Shown here: piece after piece, positions 1-6,384 of the stretch
Numbering within the stretch: position 1 is the stretch's first letter
Layout: each line of letters starts with the position of its first letter
Assembly (NCBI GenBank): GCA_900539255.1
Contig: UQBJ01000003.1
Coordinates: forward strand, 22,058-86,057
Direction: 5' to 3'
DNA from: an uncultured Campylobacter sp.
GTDB lineage: Bacteria; Campylobacterota; Campylobacteria; Campylobacterales; Campylobacteraceae
DNA length: 64,000 nt
Program-made: the position numbers and the translations under genes
Notes under the pieces: model-generated
Database searches by the model: none
What the model was told of the DNA's origin: nothing
The model's input: the letters and a program-made list of their open reading frames with translations, nothing else

Positions 1-3
1 AAT

Positions 4-1788
4 TTAGCGTTTTGCGGTGTTTGGCTTTAAAAAGCCCTCGCGGACTAAAATGTCTATGGTGTCCTTAAACACGGGCAAGGCACTTTGTGCGGCGTAGTAG
101 CTGTAAGGCTTTGTCGGGTTTCGCACAAGCACGCCTATGGTGTAAGCGTTGTTTGCGTCATTTGCAAACCCAAAAAAGCTGGCGTTATAGCGGTTGCTCG
201 TGTAGCCGCCCTTGCCCGCTATGCGTGCCGTGCCTGTTTTGCCACCTAGCACAAGCCCTTGCGTGAGCGCCTTTTTGCCCGTGCCTTTTTCTATGGTGTT
301 GATGAGCATTTTTTGCATAAGCGCGCTGGCGTTTGGAGAGAGAATTTTTTCGCTTTTTTGTGATTCTTCTTTGAAAACGCCGTTTTGGTAGGTTTTTTCG
401 CCGATTTTTGGCGTGATATATACGCCGCCGTTGTTAAAGACATTGTAGCCCGCTAAAAGCTGTATAAAGGTAGTTTTCAGCCCATAACCATAGCTTAACA
501 CTGATTTTTCAATGTCTCGTAGTTTTTTTGGCTCTGGCAGCTCGCCCCTTTGCTCATAAGGCAAGTCAATGCCGCTTTTTTCCCCAAAATGAAAGATTTT
601 AAGCCCAGCGATTATCTCAAAATTTGAAAGCCGTTTAGCAATTTGTATCATTCCGACATTTGATGAATACACCAAAATGTCCTCAGGGCTCATCGAAGCG
701 GCTTTGTGGTCATCTTGTATGGTGAAACGCCCGAGTTTATAAGAGCCGCCAAAGGTGTTTATGCGTTCATTCAGGCGCAGTTTGTCAAGGCGCAAGGCTG
801 TGGTAAAGATAAAGGGCTTGATGACGGAGCCTGCCTCGTAGCTATACTCAATCGCGCTGGCGTTTAGCACGGACAAGTCCTTGCCTCTCTTGCTTGGCTC
901 AAAGCGGCGCGAGCTGGCTAGGGCGAGTATCTTGCCCGTTTTGCTCTCCATCACGCCCACGATGATTTCGCTTGCGTTTAAGTCGGCATTTCGCGTGTCT
1001 ATCATTTTTTCTATGCTTTTTTGTAGCTTTAAAAAGACATTTATGTAAAGGTTGCAGCCGTTGATTTTGCGCTGTTGGACGGAGTCTAAATTCAGCACTA
1101 TGTTGCCACCTATGTCTTTAAGCCCTTGCACCTTTTCATCTTGCACGGCTTTTAAGCACTCATCGTAGGATTTTTCAAGCCCTTTAACGCCGACATTTTT
1201 AAGCACGCCAAGTTCCTTGTCAAGCACCACGCGCGTGTAGCCGATGACGGGCGTGAGCGAGTCCTTTGACATATAGTTTCTGTCCTCTTTATGCTCGATG
1301 ATACTCAGCCCGCGCGTTTCTACTTTGTTGTTGGAGTTTGTAAAAGCCTTGAAAAAGCCCTGCACATAGAGTTTTTTAGCAAGTTCTTTAAGATAGCTTG
1401 CTTGCTTGGAGTCTATGTTTTGCAAAAGCACGAAGTTGTGGCTTTTGGGGTTTTTGTTAGCAAGCCTTTTTTTAATGTCTCTCATCGTGGCATCATCAGC
1501 CCCGCTGTAAATTTGAAAGAGTTTTAAAAACAAATCAAATTTCGCGCCGTTGATACTTCGCAAATCAATCTCAGCGCGGTAAATTTCCTTTGACGAGCTA
1601 ATGATAAAGCCGTCTTTTGTGATGATATTGCCGCGCAGGGCTATGTCAAACTGCTCTTTTTCGGTGTTGGGTAGGTTGCGTTTGGAGGTGAGAAAAAAAG
1701 TCGCACCCAAAAACACAGCCATAAAAAACATCGCCATAAAAAAGACAAAGGCGACTTTGGAGGCTCTGTTTTTGTTGTGCGTTTGCAT
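4..1788 (-). CDS. Penicillin-binding protein 2 / peptidoglycan D,D-transpeptidase (MrdA/PBP2 family)
   Basis: 594-aa ORF with an N-terminal TM anchor and transpeptidase motifs (SxxK region, SSN, KTGTA). It sits directly upstream (same strand) of fliE-flgC-flgB, as the pbp gene does in C. jejuni. The stop codon is at positions 4-6, so the gene is complete. Confidence 0.85.
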   Translation of the reverse strand: MQTHNKNRASKVAFVFFMAMFFMAVFLGATFFLTSKRNLPNTEKEQFDIALRGNIITKDGFIISSSKEIYRAEIDLRSINGAKFDLFLKLFQIYSGADDATMRDIKKRLANKNPKSHNFVLLQNIDSKQASYLKELAKKLYVQGFFKAFTNSNNKVETRGLSIIEHKEDRNYMSKDSLTPVIGYTRVVLDKELGVLKNVGVKGLEKSYDECLKAVQDEKVQGLKDIGGNIVLNLDSVQQRKINGCNLYINVFLKLQKSIEKMIDTRNADLNASEIIVGVMESKTGKILALASSRRFEPSKRGKDLSVLNASAIEYSYEAGSVIKPFIFTTALRLDKLRLNERINTFGGSYKLGRFTIQDDHKAASMSPEDILVYSSNVGMIQIAKRLSNFEIIAGLKIFHFGEKSGIDLPYEQRGELPEPKKLRDIEKSVLSYGYGLKTTFIQLLAGYNVFNNGGVYITPKIGEKTYQNGVFKEESQKSEKILSPNASALMQKMLINTIEKGTGKKALTQGLVLGGKTGTARIAGKGGYTSNRYNASFFGFANDANNAYTIGVLVRNPTKPYSYYAAQSALPVFKDTIDILVREGFLKPNTAKR

Positions 1789-1793
1789 TAAAC

Positions 1794-2090
1794 TTAAATT
1801 TGCGTTCTTGTTATCTCTTTGTAAGCGTTTATCGCTTTGTTTCGCACTTCAAGCATAAATTTCATACTCATATCAGCCTTATTTATCGCAATGGCAGCTT
1901 GGTGCAAGTCCTTCACCTCGCCTGTGGCTATGTCCGTCATCGCTGCTTCGGCTGTTTTTTGCGTGTCATCTTGCTCTTCTAAATTTTGTTTGAGTAGCCT
2001 AGCAAATTCCTCGCCTATGGGCGTCATCTTTGCGTTTTGCTGTCTGGTTTCTTGTGAGTTGGCTACTTGCCCTATTTGTGTAATGTCCAT
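1794..2090 (-). CDS. fliE: Flagellar hook-basal body complex protein FliE
   Basis: 98-aa protein with a typical FliE sequence and size. Position is in a flgB-flgC-fliE operon. Confidence 0.9.
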   Translation of the reverse strand: MDITQIGQVANSQETRQQNAKMTPIGEEFARLLKQNLEEQDDTQKTAEAAMTDIATGEVKDLHQAAIAINKADMSMKFMLEVRNKAINAYKEITRTQI

Positions 2091-2092
2091 TT

Positions 2093-2587
2093 TTAACTCC
2101 TTAGTAAATCTATCGCACTTTGAGCTATGCTTTTGGTGCTGTTAAACGCCGCGACATTTGCTTGATAAGCCCTTGTCGCTTCTATCAAATCCGCCATTTC
2201 GATGACAGGGTTTATGTTTGGGTATGACACATAGCCCTCATCGTTGGCGTCTGGGTGATTTGGCTCGTATTTGAGCCTAAATTCCTTGTCATCTCGCACA
2301 ACCTTATGCACCACAACGCTCATTATGCTCGGGTCTGCGTCCTTTGGCGAGCTGGGGTCGTTCAAAGGGTTTTCGTATTCGAGCATATTGCTGTCGTCTT
2401 TGATTTTGCGGTTTAAAATCTCGCTAAAATCAGTCGCCTTAAAGATAACCGAACGCCTACGATAAGGTCCGCCCTCAGCAGTGCGAGTGGTGTTAGCGTT
2501 AGCTATGTTTGAACTGATGATATTGATACGAAAGCGTTGTGCGCTCAGTCCATATCCGCTTATGTCAAAATCGCTTAAATACGCCAT
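2093..2587 (-). CDS. flgC: Flagellar basal-body rod protein FlgC
   Basis: 164 aa with the N-terminal rod-protein motif (SNIANANTT). It lies between flgB and fliE. Confidence 0.9.
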   Translation of the reverse strand: MAYLSDFDISGYGLSAQRFRINIISSNIANANTTRTAEGGPYRRRSVIFKATDFSEILNRKIKDDSNMLEYENPLNDPSSPKDADPSIMSVVVHKVVRDDKEFRLKYEPNHPDANDEGYVSYPNINPVIEMADLIEATRAYQANVAAFNSTKSIAQSAIDLLRS

Positions 2588-2598
2588 TACCTAACCCC

Positions 2599-3030
2599 TT
2601 AATTCAACTTCGAGCTGGCATCAACTATGCCACCAAAAATGCTGCCTTGCTTTTTCAGCACGCCATCAAGCGCATTTACCATAGCCGCATTTTTGCTCAT
2701 CTCGCTCGTCTCCACATCTAAATCCACCGTGTTAGCATCATTTCGTGCTAAATGCCCGTCTCTCAAATAAATAGTCGATTTATTTGGGTCTGGGAACTTC
2801 CAAGGCTCTTGATGAGCCTCGTGAGTCAAAGCCACTTTCAGTTCTTTACTATCGTCTTTTTTGAAAATAACTTTTGCCCTATTGACTAATGCCGTTTCAA
2901 ATTCTATGTCGCGCGCCTTGAAAAATGGCGTATCGACATTCGCAAGGTTTGAGATAATCATCTCATTTCTAATGTTGCGCCCTGCCAAAGCCGAGCTTAC
3001 CAGCTCTTTGGACTTAAACGGAACTATCAT
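2599..3030 (-). CDS. flgB: Flagellar basal-body rod protein FlgB
   Basis: 143 aa with the rod N-terminal motif (SNLANVDTP). It is the first gene of the operon. Confidence 0.9.
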   Translation of the reverse strand: MIVPFKSKELVSSALAGRNIRNEMIISNLANVDTPFFKARDIEFETALVNRAKVIFKKDDSKELKVALTHEAHQEPWKFPDPNKSTIYLRDGHLARNDANTVDLDVETSEMSKNAAMVNALDGVLKKQGSIFGGIVDASSKLN

Positions 3031-3066
3031 TTTTATCCTTTTTCAAAGCATTAGTATCAATATGAA

Positions 3067-3083
3067 GCAAAAAGCGTTCCAAA
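3067..3083 (-). promoter_or_regulatory. sigma54 (RpoN) promoter for flgB-flgC-fliE
   Basis: The plus strand reads GCAA-aaagc-GTTCCAA, which is the reverse complement of TTGGAAC-N5-TTGC. This is an exact match to the Campylobacter sigma54 -24/-12 consensus. It lies ~37 bp upstream of the flgB ATG. Confidence 0.7.
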
Positions 3084-3166
3084 TTTTAAAACGGAGTAAA
3101 TTTTTTGAGAAATTTTTAAATTTTCAGCACAAACCTTAAAAAAGCCCAAATTCCAAAGCCAAACGC

Positions 3167-3976
3167 CTAAAAATTCAAACTCGCCCCAAGCCGAAATTCC
3201 ACACTTTGCCCCTTTTCATAAAAAATTTTACGCGGATTAAAAAGCTGATGAAAGGCGTTAAATTCGGCAAAAATGTCAAATTCTTTAAAGGCGTTTAGCC
3301 CAGCAAAAAGGCTTATTTTGCTGTCATAGCCGCGGTTGTTGTCGTTTAAATCATAATAAATTTGATATTCGCCGATAAATTTAAACCCCTCAAAGCTCGC
3401 CACAACGCCACTTTTAAGCGACACGAAAGGGTTGTGGATAAGCTCATATCTATAACCCAAATCCCCAAGCGCATAAAAGCTAAACGCCCCAGCATAAGCG
3501 CCCACGCCAAGCCCTAAATCAAGCGTAGGAAAAAGCCTTGTGCGCTCATTTTGCTCACCTTTAAAGTGCTTATTTGCTCCTTTTGCGTATAAATTTGGCT
3601 CAAAACGCAAGCTGATGAGCTTTGAAAGGCTGTTTGTCCGCAAAGTATCAGCCACGCTAAAAAGGTGCAAAAGCTCGATTTTATGCAAAAAAGCCTTGAA
3701 TTTATCGTCTTTATCAAGCCCAGCAAAACGCAGTTCAAGCGAAGTAAGGCGCGATTCTATCAGCTCTTTGTAGGCGTTGTTTGCGTTTTTTATGTCCGAG
3801 TAAATGGGCGCAAAATATAAAAAGCCTTGACGGGCTGAGCCGTTCAAATGCGTAAGCCCAAAAGAGATTTTTGAGCTTTTGCGAGTGTTTAAAATGTCGT
3901 TGCTGCCAAATTTTTGCACGAATTTTTGCTTGTTTGGCGGGGTTTTAAGCTCATATACAGCAAATAAAAAGCGCAA
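3167..3976 (-). CDS. Hypothetical protein, possible outer-membrane beta-barrel (C-terminal ...LNF)
   Basis: 269-aa ORF with a TTG start and alternating amphipathic segments. The terminal aromatic residue is typical of OMPs. No family recognised. No clear signal peptide at the annotated start. Confidence 0.4.
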   Translation of the reverse strand: MRFLFAVYELKTPPNKQKFVQKFGSNDILNTRKSSKISFGLTHLNGSARQGFLYFAPIYSDIKNANNAYKELIESRLTSLELRFAGLDKDDKFKAFLHKIELLHLFSVADTLRTNSLSKLISLRFEPNLYAKGANKHFKGEQNERTRLFPTLDLGLGVGAYAGAFSFYALGDLGYRYELIHNPFVSLKSGVVASFEGFKFIGEYQIYYDLNDNNRGYDSKISLFAGLNAFKEFDIFAEFNAFHQLFNPRKIFYEKGQSVEFRLGASLNF

Positions 3977-4093: not shown

Positions 4094-4552
4094 CTAGAAT
4101 TTGCACTCATAAATCTCGCCTTTTACCCGCAATGAGCTGACTTCTTTGACATCAAAGTTGTTGCCGGGGCAAGGGATTTCAGGATTGTCGTTTGCACTGC
4201 CTGTTAGCGACTTCATAAAGCCTTTTTCAGCCTTGCAATTCCATATTTCAGCTGCGTGATACACGACCAAACGCTTGCTGCTGCCCACTTCGACAAGATA
4301 GGCGGATTTGTTGAGCAAGTCATTTTTCGCGCTTTCTCTCATCATCTCCATAGTTGCACTCGTTTCGCCGATACGCGCTATGCCTTCTTTTTCGCCTACA
4401 AGCATACAACCCATAGGCTTGCTTTGCGAAAACGCCAAACGATGAGCGTCTGATGATAAAGCTGTTACTTGGTAAAGCGGTTTTGAACTGCACGCCATAA
4501 ACAGCAACGACAAGCCGCAAAATGCGGCGACACTAAGAACGGATTTAAGCAT
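4094..4552 (-). CDS. Putative lipoprotein
   Basis: 152 aa with a signal peptide and lipobox (LLFMAC-SS). A strong RBS AAGGAG lies 5 nt upstream of the ATG. Confidence 0.7.
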   Translation of the reverse strand: MLKSVLSVAAFCGLSLLFMACSSKPLYQVTALSSDAHRLAFSQSKPMGCMLVGEKEGIARIGETSATMEMMRESAKNDLLNKSAYLVEVGSSKRLVVYHAAEIWNCKAEKGFMKSLTGSANDNPEIPCPGNNFDVKEVSSLRVKGEIYECKF

Positions 4553-4600
4553 AATAGCTCCTTTGTTGTGAAAAATTTATCTTATGAAAAGATATGCACT

Positions 4601-4619
4601 ATTATAATGCCCCCCCCCC
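4601..4619 (-). promoter_or_regulatory. Candidate phase-variable promoter: G10 homopolymer immediately upstream of TATAAT -10 box
   Basis: The minus strand reads GGGGGGGGGG-CAT-TATAAT. The poly-G spans 4610-4619 and the -10 hexamer spans 4606-4601, about 48 nt upstream of the lipoprotein ATG. Confidence 0.5.
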
Positions 4620-4848
4620 TTAAATTAACCTTAAAAGAAGCTTAAAGTTAGCTTAAATTTCAAAAATTTTTCGCCACTTGCGTGGAAAACAAATTTAGAA
4701 ATCAAAATAAAATTCAACGCAAGCGCGGAAATTTAGGCAAAAGAGCGGAAAGTGAAAGCTAAAATTTGAAAATTTAAGCGAAAATCAAAGTGTTTGAGTG
4801 AGAAATTTAAATTTTGAGTAGGAATTTAGCGTTTTAGAAAGTTTTGAA

Positions 4849-4968
4849 AAAAGGTTTGAAAAAAGTGTTAAGAAGTTTTAAAAAGTTTTGCAAAAGGTGT
4901 TAAAAGGTTTCAAAAAGTTTTAAAAAGTTCTAAAAAAGCATTAAAAAAGTTTTCAAAAATGTAAATTC
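4849..4968. repeat. Phased A-tract array (~11-bp period gttttaaaaaa-like units, ~11 copies)
   Basis: Direct reading shows repeated aaaagtttt/aaaaggttt units with a helical-repeat period. This implies intrinsically bent DNA upstream of a consensus promoter. Confidence 0.6.
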
Positions 4969-4972
4969 CCCC

Positions 4973-5001
4973 TTGACATTAGTCCCAAAAAAGACTATAA
5001 T
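4973..5001 (+). promoter_or_regulatory. Consensus sigma70-type promoter TTGACA-N17-TATAAT
   Basis: TTGACA at 4973-4978, a 17-nt spacer, then TATAAT at 4996-5001. It is followed by the inverted repeat CCTTGTAAA...TTTACAAGG at 5005-5038, a possible operator or attenuator. It drives toward the SMR pair. Confidence 0.55.
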
Positions 5002-5039
5002 TAGTCCTTGTAAAGACTAAATTTACTTGTTTTACAAGG

Positions 5040-5220
5040 ATAAGGCGCAAAAAGATTAGGAAAGTAAGAAAAATAAAAAGAAAGCAAGAAAAGCAAATAC
5101 GCAAAAAGTTAAAAAATAAGAAAACAAAAAAGCAAATTTAAGTAAAAAGTTAAAAAAAATAAAAAATACAAAAGACAAAATGCAAAAAAGTATAAGAAAG
5201 CAAAAATAAAAAAGGACAAA
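5040..5220 (+). other. Purine-rich (A/G-only) ~180-nt leader preceding SMR operon
   Basis: The sequence is almost devoid of C/T (e.g. aagaaaaataaaaagaaagcaagaaaagcaa...). It lies between the promoter and the SMR start codon. The 5056-5241 ORF on the opposite strand is a poly-F artifact. Confidence 0.5.
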
Positions 5221-5221
5221 A

Positions 5222-5602
5222 ATGACAAAAATTTCTCGCATTCGCTCGTGGATAATGCTGTGTTTGGCTATCGCGCTTGAAATTGCAGGGCTTAGTTTGC
5301 TTCAAGTTTTTGAGGAAAGTCCCGTTTTAAGCAAGGTGATTTTGGTGTGTTTTATGAACGCTTCTTATTTTCTTATGTCCTTAGCGTTGCGCCAAATTTC
5401 AGTGGGTGTGGCGTATGCGGCGTGGGAAATCATCGGCGGCATAGGCGTTTTGTTTGTGAGTTTTATCTTTTTTAACCCTATTTTAAGCACTCAGCAATAC
5501 TTCGGCGTAGCACTTGGTTTCATCGGCATAGTTTGCATTATCTTGGGCGAAAAGCACGACACAAGCGCAAATTCCGCTCTAAATTTAAAGGCAAAGGACT
5601 AA
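5222..5602 (+). CDS. Small multidrug resistance (SMR/DMT) family protein, subunit 1
   Basis: 126 aa with 4 TM segments and an EmrE/Gdx-like motif (AYAAWEIIGGIG). It is the first gene of a tandem pair. Confidence 0.8.
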   Translation: MTKISRIRSWIMLCLAIALEIAGLSLLQVFEESPVLSKVILVCFMNASYFLMSLALRQISVGVAYAAWEIIGGIGVLFVSFIFFNPILSTQQYFGVALGFIGIVCIILGEKHDTSANSALNLKAKD

Positions 5603-5603
5603 A

Positions 5604-5921
5604 ATGGCGGCGTTTTTACTCATTTGCTTTTCGGGCGTTTTGGATATTTTTTCAAATTTAGCTTTGGCAAAGTCCGATGGCTTTAAAAAGCTATGGTGGG
5701 GGCTTTTGGCTTTGTTGCTTGTGGATAGTTGCTTTGTGGCTTTGGCTTTTGCGCTTGATTTGGGTATGCAGCTGCCCGTTGCTTACACGCTTTGGGGCGC
5801 GATAGGCATTTTGGGAACTACGGCTGGGGGATATTATTTTTTCGCTCAAAAGCTCAAACCCATAGGCTTTGTAGGCATTGTGTTGGTGCTTTGCGCTGTT
5901 TATTTGCTGCATTTTGCGTAA
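5604..5921 (+). CDS. Small multidrug resistance (SMR/DMT) family protein, subunit 2
   Basis: 105 aa with 4 TM segments and an SMR motif (AYTLWGAIGILG). It is adjacent and translationally coupled, suggesting a heterodimeric SMR like EbrAB/YkkCD. Confidence 0.8.
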   Translation: MAAFLLICFSGVLDIFSNLALAKSDGFKKLWWGLLALLLVDSCFVALAFALDLGMQLPVAYTLWGAIGILGTTAGGYYFFAQKLKPIGFVGIVLVLCAVYLLHFA

Positions 5922-5931
5922 GGGCTGGGCT

Positions 5932-6384
5932 ATGCAAATCAGCGAGGCTCAAATCCACGAATTTAACAGGCTTTATTATAAGATAAATGGCTTGTATGCG
6001 CGTTTTGAGAACGCAAAAAACATAAATAGCTCGGTGTATAAGGTTTTGCACGCACTTTTCATCAGCGAACTTCACACGCAAAAGGACATTATGCAAAGCT
6101 ACGAAATGCCCAAACAAACGATAAACAATGTCATCGCAAACCTGCAAAAGCAAGGTTTTATCGACATTTCATCAAGCCAAAACGACAAGCGTGAAAGGAT
6201 TTTAAATCTCACAGCTAGGGGCAAAGCGTATGCAAAGGACTACACAAGCGCATACACAGCCTTTGAGATGAAAGTGTATCAAAGTTTGGGCGCGCGAAAT
6301 TTAAGCAAACTCACTCAAATTTATGCGGATTTTGAAAGGGCTTTCAATGAAGTTTTTAATGCGGAGTTTAGCAAAAAGGACTAA
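5932..6384 (+). CDS. MarR-family transcriptional regulator
   Basis: 150 aa with a winged-HTH MarR-like core. ATG at 5932 with AGGG 8 nt upstream. The upstream extension in the ORF track overlaps the SMR gene and is rejected. Confidence 0.7.
   Translation: MQISEAQIHEFNRLYYKINGLYARFENAKNINSSVYKVLHALFISELHTQKDIMQSYEMPKQTINNVIANLQKQGFIDISSSQNDKRERILNLTARGKAYAKDYTSAYTAFEMKVYQSLGARNLSKLTQIYADFERAFNEVFNAEFSKKD

Follow-up and report, generated by a model that had tools for sequence, protein, structure and literature searches.

The subject of this work is a putative efflux operon and the DNA in front of it, located in a 64,000-nt window (the whole stretch of DNA that was analysed) from the genome of an uncultured Campylobacter sp. 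(contig UQBJ01000003.1). The operon encodes two small multidrug resistance (SMR) proteins and, as its last product, a MarR-family regulator, which is the gene arrangement given in a preliminary description of the same locus. That description also pointed to a promoter of Escherichia coli type, to an inverted repeat placed shortly downstream and to a long purine-rich leader, and suggested a "leader-based or MarR-operator mechanism" for the control of the genes. We found that the region upstream of the operon most likely holds a real and well-conserved regulatory element of an already known kind, and that a new leader RNA sensor is not supported. The genes and the elements of the conserved region are:

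4968–5023, plus strand: conserved, putative promoter-operator block CCCCTTGACATTAGTCCCAAAAAAGACTATAATTAGTCCTTGTAAAGACTAAATTT of ~52 bp, comprising both promoter hexamers and two tandem palindromes
4973–4978, plus strand: −35 hexamer TTGACA, present in every marR-linked locus read
4979–4998, no strand assigned: putative operator O1, palindrome TTAGTCCCAAAAAAGACTAT, with one mismatch to TTAGTC-N8-GACTAA
4996–5001, plus strand: −10 hexamer TATAAT, without a TG extension (TACAAT in the related locus L022)
5001–5020, no strand assigned: putative operator O2, palindrome TTAGTCCTTGTAAAGACTAA, with no mismatch to TTAGTC-N8-GACTAA
5213–5216, plus strand: Shine-Dalgarno-like AGGA, 5 nt upstream of the ATG of SMR1, read from the sequence
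5222–5602, plus strand: SMR subunit 1 (126 aa), best match MdtJ (PF00893, 62.5 bits)
5604–5921, plus strand: SMR subunit 2 (105 aa), best match MdtI (PF00893, 58.8 bits)
5932–6384, plus strand: MarR-family winged-helix regulator (150 aa), last gene of the operon (PF12802, PF01047)

The intergenic gaps of 1 nt between smr1 and smr2 and of 10 nt between smr2 and marR indicate that the three genes form one operon. The SMR genes are of the paired type, which is defined by two adjacent genes for proteins of ~105–125 aa with a PF00893 match and four transmembrane helices, and their pairing is kept in all of the loci. Their best NCBIfam matches (NF007767/NF007934 equivalog set) are MdtJ for SMR1 (52.6 bits, with a cut-off of 122) and MdtI for SMR2 (73.7 bits, with a cut-off of 103). 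As both scores stay below the equivalog cut-offs, the proteins do not qualify as the MdtJI spermidine exporter; judged by sequence, the pump is only "MdtJI-like", and its substrate could be a polyamine, a quaternary cation or another compound. Many SMR1 homologs of Helicobacteraceae and Campylobacter (P0011–P0064) carry C-terminal low-complexity tails of 20–90 aa rich in S/N/K/Q, some of them with NS(A/V)NF-like repeats, and the SMR1 protein of the window has no such tail. The regulator belongs to the MarR family according to PF12802 (32.7 bits, cut-off 27) and PF01047 (27.0 bits, cut-off 24.6), and among solved structures the nearest to it is 3g3z ("Transcriptional regulator, MarR family"; E = 1.5e-16). 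Its homologs are 150–155 aa long and share the same ATG start.

The promoter upstream of these genes is, as described earlier, of the E. coli consensus type. On the plus strand, TTGACA (4973–4978) and TATAAT (4996–5001) are separated by a 17-nt spacer, which amounts to a 12/12 sigma-70 match with a spacing inside the 16–18 bp range, and on sequence criteria the element falls in the classical −35/−10 class. It is the sole 12/12 match in the 64-kb window, for which the base frequencies predict ~0.02 perfect promoters; matches with at most one mismatch number four, compared with 0.29 expected from shuffles. From the rule that transcription begins ~7 nt downstream of the −10 hexamer, the start was predicted at ~5008.

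Superimposed on this promoter are two tandem 22-bp units, ATTAGTCCCAAAAAAGACTATA (4978–4999) and ATTAGTCCTTGTAAAGACTAAA (5000–5021), which were recovered in a repeat search (family D12). Each of them holds a 20-bp TTAGTC-N8-GACTA(A/T) palindrome, so that O1 and O2 are placed 22 bp apart. The repeated AAGACTA motifs previously noted to overlap the −10 hexamer are real and turn out to be the halves of these palindromes. O1 fills the promoter spacer together with the first bases of the −10 hexamer and is kept in all marR-linked loci, while O2 starts at the last base of the −10 hexamer, spans the predicted start and is likewise conserved in marR-linked loci. Both agree with what is expected of operators, i.e., palindromes of ~16–20 bp within or over the promoter of the regulator's own operon. 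They are the only sites in the 64-kb window that match TTAGTC-N8-GACTAA with at most one mismatch; the window contains neither further operator sites nor a second copy of the operon.

For comparison, related loci were retrieved from one genome per species, from metagenome assemblies encoding homologous or identical SMR1 proteins, from MarR homologs and by a DNA-pattern scan for O1 together with the −10 hexamer. The nearest named genomes are those of Candidatus Campylobacter infans and of an uncultured sister Campylobacter. In an alignment of 12 representative loci (A2; SMR1 62–100% and MarR 57–99% identical), every locus encoding a MarR homolog has an almost unchanged block of ~52 bp, CCCCTTGACATTAGTCCCAAAAAAGACTATAATTAGTCCTTaTAAAGACTAAATTT. 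The block is sharply bounded, since the sequence adjoining it on both sides is unalignable among marR-linked loci, and it remains constant across at least four different left-hand genomic contexts of the operon. This diversity of contexts bears out the earlier impression that the whole patch is accessory.

The distribution of the block follows the regulator gene. In Helicobacteraceae (Helicobacter sp. MIT 01-3238, i.e., locus L034, as well as L035, L036, and L038), a marR gene whose product is 58–61% identical to that of the window comes first in marR-smr3 operons, and the same block is found 30–45 nt upstream of its ATG. In turn, the smr1-smr2 pair encoded elsewhere in the genome of Helicobacter sp. 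MIT 01-3238 (L003) has neither the block nor a marR gene within 4 kb. A further group of loci without marR (L001, L020, L021, L024, L025, and L028–L030) encodes SMR proteins 99–100% identical to those of the window. These loci share with it only the segment 5167–5939 and are positioned in a context reaching from an EamA-type transporter gene to a hisF-like gene. TTGACA and O1 are missing from them, and what is retained is TAyAAT and one degenerate, strain-variable O2-like remnant. Their leader is only ~55 nt long. The near-identity of these copies suggests recent copying or exchange of the SMR pair between sister lineages. Finally, the locus with the most divergent MarR protein (L011, 35% identity) has kept TTGACA-N18-TATAAT and two palindromes with changed half-sites, which fits co-evolution of the protein and its sites. 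By these comparisons, the block both co-occurs and co-evolves with marR, and it is this gene, not the pump pair, to which it is linked.

The gene orders also speak for the history of the operon. Besides the marR-smr3 operons of Helicobacteraceae, in which the block directly precedes the regulator gene, there are Campylobacter relatives (SMR1 78–85% identical) with the order block-smr1-smr2-marR-smr3. It seems from this comparison that an ancestral autoregulated marR promoter acquired the pump pair downstream and that smr3 was lost later in the lineage of the window. As for the third SMR gene, in L012–L019 it encodes 107–108 aa and directly follows marR with a 4-nt overlap, while in L034–L036 marR-smr3 stands as an operon of its own. 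In the window, smr3 is lost and ~100 bp separate marR from a convergent autotransporter gene.

The at least four left-hand contexts, and the observation that homology to the window starts within ~8 bp of the −35 hexamer in L023, L031, and L041, could also be taken to mean that the block is a recombination or integration site, or the end of a cassette that moves efflux genes, and that its match to a promoter is incidental. Yet the block occurs throughout as a single copy with the same orientation and directly 5′ of the first gene of a marR-containing operon, a second copy at the other end is absent, and no recombinase gene lies nearby. Both hexamers moreover stay at consensus, which recombination would not need. 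A plasmid origin was rejected, as PLSDB returned no match. We therefore regard a role of the block in recombination as extremely improbable.

Because the block is conserved wherever marR is linked to it, precedes marR in loci where this gene comes first, decays where marR is missing and appears to have changed along with the diverged MarR of L011, we consider it likely that 4968–5023 serves the MarR-family repressor encoded at 5932–6384 as its autoregulatory promoter-operator. Of the two mechanisms formerly proposed, the MarR-operator is thus upheld by a block that tracks marR across Campylobacter and Helicobacteraceae; the leader-based one is not, the leader being unconserved, hypervariable and by prediction unstructured. 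As we picture its action, the sigma-70 promoter TTGACA-N17-TATAAT would drive a tricistronic smr1-smr2-marR transcript, and two MarR dimers would bind the two 20-bp TTAGTC-N8-GACTAA palindromes, whose pitch of 22 bp, or about two helical turns, would bring both dimers onto one face of the helix. With O1 over the spacer and the −10 hexamer and O2 over the start site, the bound repressor would exclude RNA polymerase from an otherwise strong promoter. MarR would then be released by a ligand, presumably something that the pump exports (a polyamine, or a cationic or lipophilic compound), and the pump and the repressor would be induced together, which is negative autoregulation.

Some points weigh against this interpretation. 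For MarR operators, the ~14 bp between the half-site centers of O1 and O2 are on the long side; the true recognition bases may sit further inside the palindromes, as the invariant AAAAAGA within O1 hints. In no leader seen among the marR-linked loci of the Candidatus Campylobacter infans-like clade (class A) is the distance from TTGACA to the ATG below 187 bp. This minimum may be a sign that long leaders are selected for, and it would not be expected of a repeat that drifts in a purely neutral way. The use of TTGACA by a Campylobacter sigma factor is an assumption, given that C. jejuni promoters usually have no −35 hexamer and read TGxTATAAT preceded by periodic A/T-rich DNA, the TG extension being found in about 89% of them (PMC3656092). 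That none of the marR-linked loci is without TTGACA speaks for its use.

If the interpretation holds, the two palindromes provide a testable candidate operator (TTAGTC-N8-GACTAA, twice) and a seed for defining the regulon of an uncharacterised MarR regulator. This regulator is common to the emerging Campylobacter lineages of the human gut (Ca. C. infans-like) and enterohepatic-type Helicobacter, and it is tied to SMR efflux genes, through which tolerance to polyamines or cationic biocides may be influenced. The locus also offers a fully canonical −35/−10 promoter kept under strong purifying selection in Campylobacterales, whose typical promoters do without the −35 hexamer.

The inverted repeat highlighted previously is a different element and overlaps only in part with the conserved palindromes:

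5006–5014 and 5031–5039, plus strand: inverted repeat with the arms CCTTGTAAA and TTTACAAGG, 16 nt apart, read from the sequence

The perfect 9-bp inverted repeat with its N16 spacing is indeed present. Its left arm, CCTTGTAAA, is simply the interior of O2, and its right arm, TTTACAAGG, is lineage-specific and absent outside the clade. Pair counting over 13 distinct clade sequences gave no compensatory changes; 8 of the 13 have lost pairing at the central G-C position, and 5 have lost it at the outer C-G position. In the predicted minimum-energy fold of the RNA, the repeat arm is left unused. A conserved hairpin or operator at this place was rejected on account of the missing covariation, the frequent breakage and the lack of the right arm in distant loci, and from its sequence the repeat is probably not a functional element. 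Thus, the palindrome highlighted at first is not conserved, and the conserved elements are instead the two TTAGTC-N8-GACTAA palindromes.

Between this repeat and smr1 lies the leader:

5040–5221, plus strand: A-rich leader made of degenerate tandem copies of a ~41-nt unit, 68% A, hypervariable in length between strains

The leader had been called purine-only, i.e., made almost wholly of A and G, which overstates its composition: 5040–5221 consists of 68% A, 14% G, 12% T, and 7% C and is thus 81% purine, and 5002–5221 is 75% purine. Still, no other 180-nt stretch of the window is as rich in purines, and none but this one reaches 75%. A degenerate tandem repeat with a period of 40–41 nt and ~3 copies spans 5071–5231. 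In 15 loci of the Candidatus Campylobacter infans-like clade, the distance from TTGACA to the ATG takes 13 distinct values (187, 199, 199, 209, 213, 213, 218, 249 in the window, 263, 275, 279, 283, 289, 293, and 323 bp). The coding sequence of these loci is nearly identical, the leaders differ in length by gain or loss of A-rich units, and their A content is 66–70% at every length. The proximal sequence AAAAAGGACAAAAATG ahead of the SMR1 ATG is kept in all clade loci, with or without marR. Outside the clade the leader is not conserved, and the sequence from the block to the ATG is unrelated and usually short: L005 has ~40 nt, L012 ~125 nt whose composition is ordinary, L015 ~70 nt that include a different hairpin, L018 ~50 nt with a repeat-like element, and the marR-first loci of Helicobacteraceae 30–45 nt.

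One reading of this region is that the A-rich 5′ untranslated region (UTR) is a cis-regulatory RNA which senses the pump substrate and acts on transcription elongation or on the translation of smr1, either as a new riboswitch or as an upstream open reading frame (ORF) attenuator. In its favor, the predicted UTR of ~214 nt (5008–5221) is unusually long, no class A allele falls below the 187-bp minimum, and the best family matches of the pump, MdtJ and MdtI, are the products of an E. coli operon with a regulatory leader: mdtJI is preceded by a 278-nt UTR with the 34-codon upstream ORF mdtU and is controlled by spermidine-relieved Rho termination (PMC7815308). For this reason, all ATG-initiated ORFs in the 15 clade leaders were listed. 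A lysine-rich mini-ORF, ATGCAAAA... ("MQK..."), occurs in most of them, yet it is missing in L031 and L040, has 2 codons in L046 and from 4 to more than 23 codons elsewhere, changes frame and is in none of the 15 leaders preceded by a Shine-Dalgarno sequence. No ORF being conserved among the 15 leaders, an mdtU-like upstream ORF was rejected.

The other evidence bearing on a sensory leader is likewise adverse. The preliminary description had held that the idea of a regulatory leader would be weakened if orthologous SMR loci were without it, and this is what we observed, as marR-linked orthologous loci (L005, L012, L015, L018, L034, and L035) have no such leader or an unrelated one. Even within the clade, 13 lengths among 15 near-identical loci are hard to reconcile with a sensor. 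The predicted transcript 5008–5240 folds with −10.5 kcal/mol, compared with −14.0 ± 2.8 kcal/mol for dinucleotide shuffles (z = +1.28); it is therefore less structured than expected by chance, and a structured leader was rejected on this basis. Neither conservation, nor folding, nor covariation of the inverted repeat thus speaks for a conserved structured leader. The stated absence of guanidine-I, -II, and -III motifs was borne out by an Rfam scan of 4400–5400 at E ≤ 10, in which we found no relevant match and only noise far below the gathering scores, and a scan of six orthologous loci at the gathering score gave no match either, so a riboswitch or other known RNA family was rejected. Attenuation by Rho fares no better: C-poor RNA loads Rho poorly, and a leader with 7% C and 14% G would be a poor loading site. 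Control by the leader is accordingly judged highly improbable, which removes a false lead, namely a new riboswitch at this locus.

Two further origins of the A-rich sequence were considered and rejected. It is not the remnant of a lysine-rich N-terminal extension of SMR1, an origin suggested by the greater length of many homologs, as the extensions of the homologs are C-terminal and the upstream frame has stops. Nor is it minus-strand coding sequence (a 61-aa F/L-rich ORF at 5056–5241), as strains differ in length by numbers that three does not divide. On sequence grounds, the most fitting description of the leader is that of a hypervariable A-rich minisatellite in a predicted 5′ UTR, not of a sensor; through its unstructured A-rich character, it would at most tune translation or mRNA stability.

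Such tuning could also be a function in its own right. The number of repeat copies would then alter the translation efficiency of the pump genes or the half-life of their mRNA, for example if the unstructured A-rich RNA were bound by ribosomal protein S1 or offered a standby site, and strains would differ heritably in pump level, all this on top of control by MarR. The extreme length polymorphism next to identical coding sequence, a composition that stays within the same narrow A range at any length and the lack of short class A alleles are in line with this possibility. Campylobacter is moreover known for repeat-based phase variation, and a poly-C tract is positioned 400 bp away. Yet an effect of length on expression is conjecture, and neutral drift of degenerate repeats would give the same picture. 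Relatives manage without the repeat, and the A-tract array upstream of the promoter is equally variable and dispensable, which suggests that the A/T-rich region is generally unstable. We consider a tuning role of the repeat unlikely. The more specific proposal that the 41-nt UTR repeat is a heritable, fast-mutating control of efflux-pump output, spreading pump levels over a population on top of MarR induction and possibly acting on translation efficiency or mRNA lifetime by way of ribosome or S1 loading or of sliding on lysine-codon-like A runs, is doubtful to a somewhat greater degree; if true, it would represent a contingency locus built on a UTR minisatellite rather than on the usual homopolymeric tract. 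Whatever its role, the hypervariable leader could serve as a strain-typing marker.

The proposed autoregulatory promoter-operator is flanked on its upstream side by the array just mentioned:

4831–4958, no strand assigned: A-tract array of ~12 GTTTTAAAAA-like copies with a period of 10–11 bp, directly upstream of the promoter

The computed periods of the array are 10/22/32, and it should be intrinsically curved DNA. It resembles, in an enlarged form, the periodic A/T signal usually found upstream of Campylobacter promoters (PMC3656092). The number of copies is not the same in L026, L027, L032, and the window. L023 and L031 have no array at all, and their homology to the window begins ~8 bp upstream of the −35 hexamer. 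Being variable and missing in some loci, it is not part of the conserved unit.

Further upstream, a C10 homopolymer (4610–4619) within 4603–4619 abuts a TATAAT that can be read as a −10 hexamer in either direction (TATTATAATG / CATTATAATA). In the minus-strand reading, the tract is a G10 directly upstream of the −10 hexamer, ~50–60 nt ahead of a divergent gene for a 152-aa lipoprotein-like protein (4094–4552). The related loci L026, L027, and L032 have C10 or C11, and from its sequence the C10/TATAAT element is a candidate phase-variable promoter. In several loci, homology to the window also ends on the left at this place (about 4600).

Downstream of the operon, the minus strand of 6489–8528 encodes a 679-aa protein with a weak match to the Mac-1 (IdeS-like cysteine protease) domain and a long G/S/N-rich low-complexity linker. 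It resembles an autotransporter, and its C-terminal region looks like a β-barrel. In L002, ~1.6 kb of this gene (window 6542–8167) is deleted and the sequence continues into a homolog of window 41213–43439, which points to rearrangement between strains. Intergenic regions of related Campylobacterales loci (L005, 100–160; L007, 3480–3660; L015, 810–860; L018, 2830–2870 and 2950–2990) share a short repeat whose ends are inverted, of the type GTCATTGCGAG...ATTGCCACGC, and in L018 this repeat sits inside the leader of the efflux operon. It looks like a repetitive extragenic palindromic (REP) or miniature inverted-repeat transposable element (MITE).

Compared with known systems, the promoter shares with the typical C. 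jejuni sigma-70 promoter, as described in PMC3656092 (citing Petersen et al. 2003), a TATAAT −10 hexamer placed behind periodic A/T-rich DNA, here 4831–4958; it differs by a perfect, conserved TTGACA at 17 bp and by the absence of the TG extension. With E. coli mdtU-mdtJI the operon has in common that a long 5′ UTR (278 nt there, PMC7815308, and ~214 nt predicted here) precedes the genes of a paired SMR pump resembling MdtJ/MdtI. Yet E. coli relies on a conserved upstream ORF and on Rho (PMC7815308), whereas the leader described here is C-poor and has no conserved ORF. It is also confined to one clade, a putative repressor-operator is found instead, and the SMR proteins score below the equivalog cut-offs. 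Guanidine riboswitches (ykkC/guanidine-I, mini-ykkC/guanidine-II, and ykkC-III), which precede Gdx and YkkCD genes, are alike in being non-coding leaders ahead of SMR genes; in contrast, the leader of the window has no relevant Rfam match at E ≤ 10 and is predicted to be unstructured, and the pump is closer to MdtJI than to SugE/Gdx.

The closest counterparts of the proposed promoter-operator are the autoregulated MarR-family efflux operons, in which two palindromic operators lie over the promoter, as at sites I and II of marO in E. coli marRAB, for MexR at mexR-mexAB in P. aeruginosa and for MepR at mepRAB in S. aureus. Literature searches for an SMR-MarR unit of Campylobacterales and for a tandem repeat in a UTR led to general reviews only, and no description of such a unit was among them. 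Like these systems, the operon of the window combines a winged-helix MarR regulator with an efflux pump and has two palindromes over the −35/−10 region and the start site, and by analogy ligand-relieved repression would be expected. In contrast to them, its hosts are Campylobacterales, its putative half-sites, TTAGTC-N8-GACTAA, are unrelated to the published operators, and the regulator is encoded last, behind a heterodimeric SMR pump, while in relatives it is encoded first or between two SMR modules.

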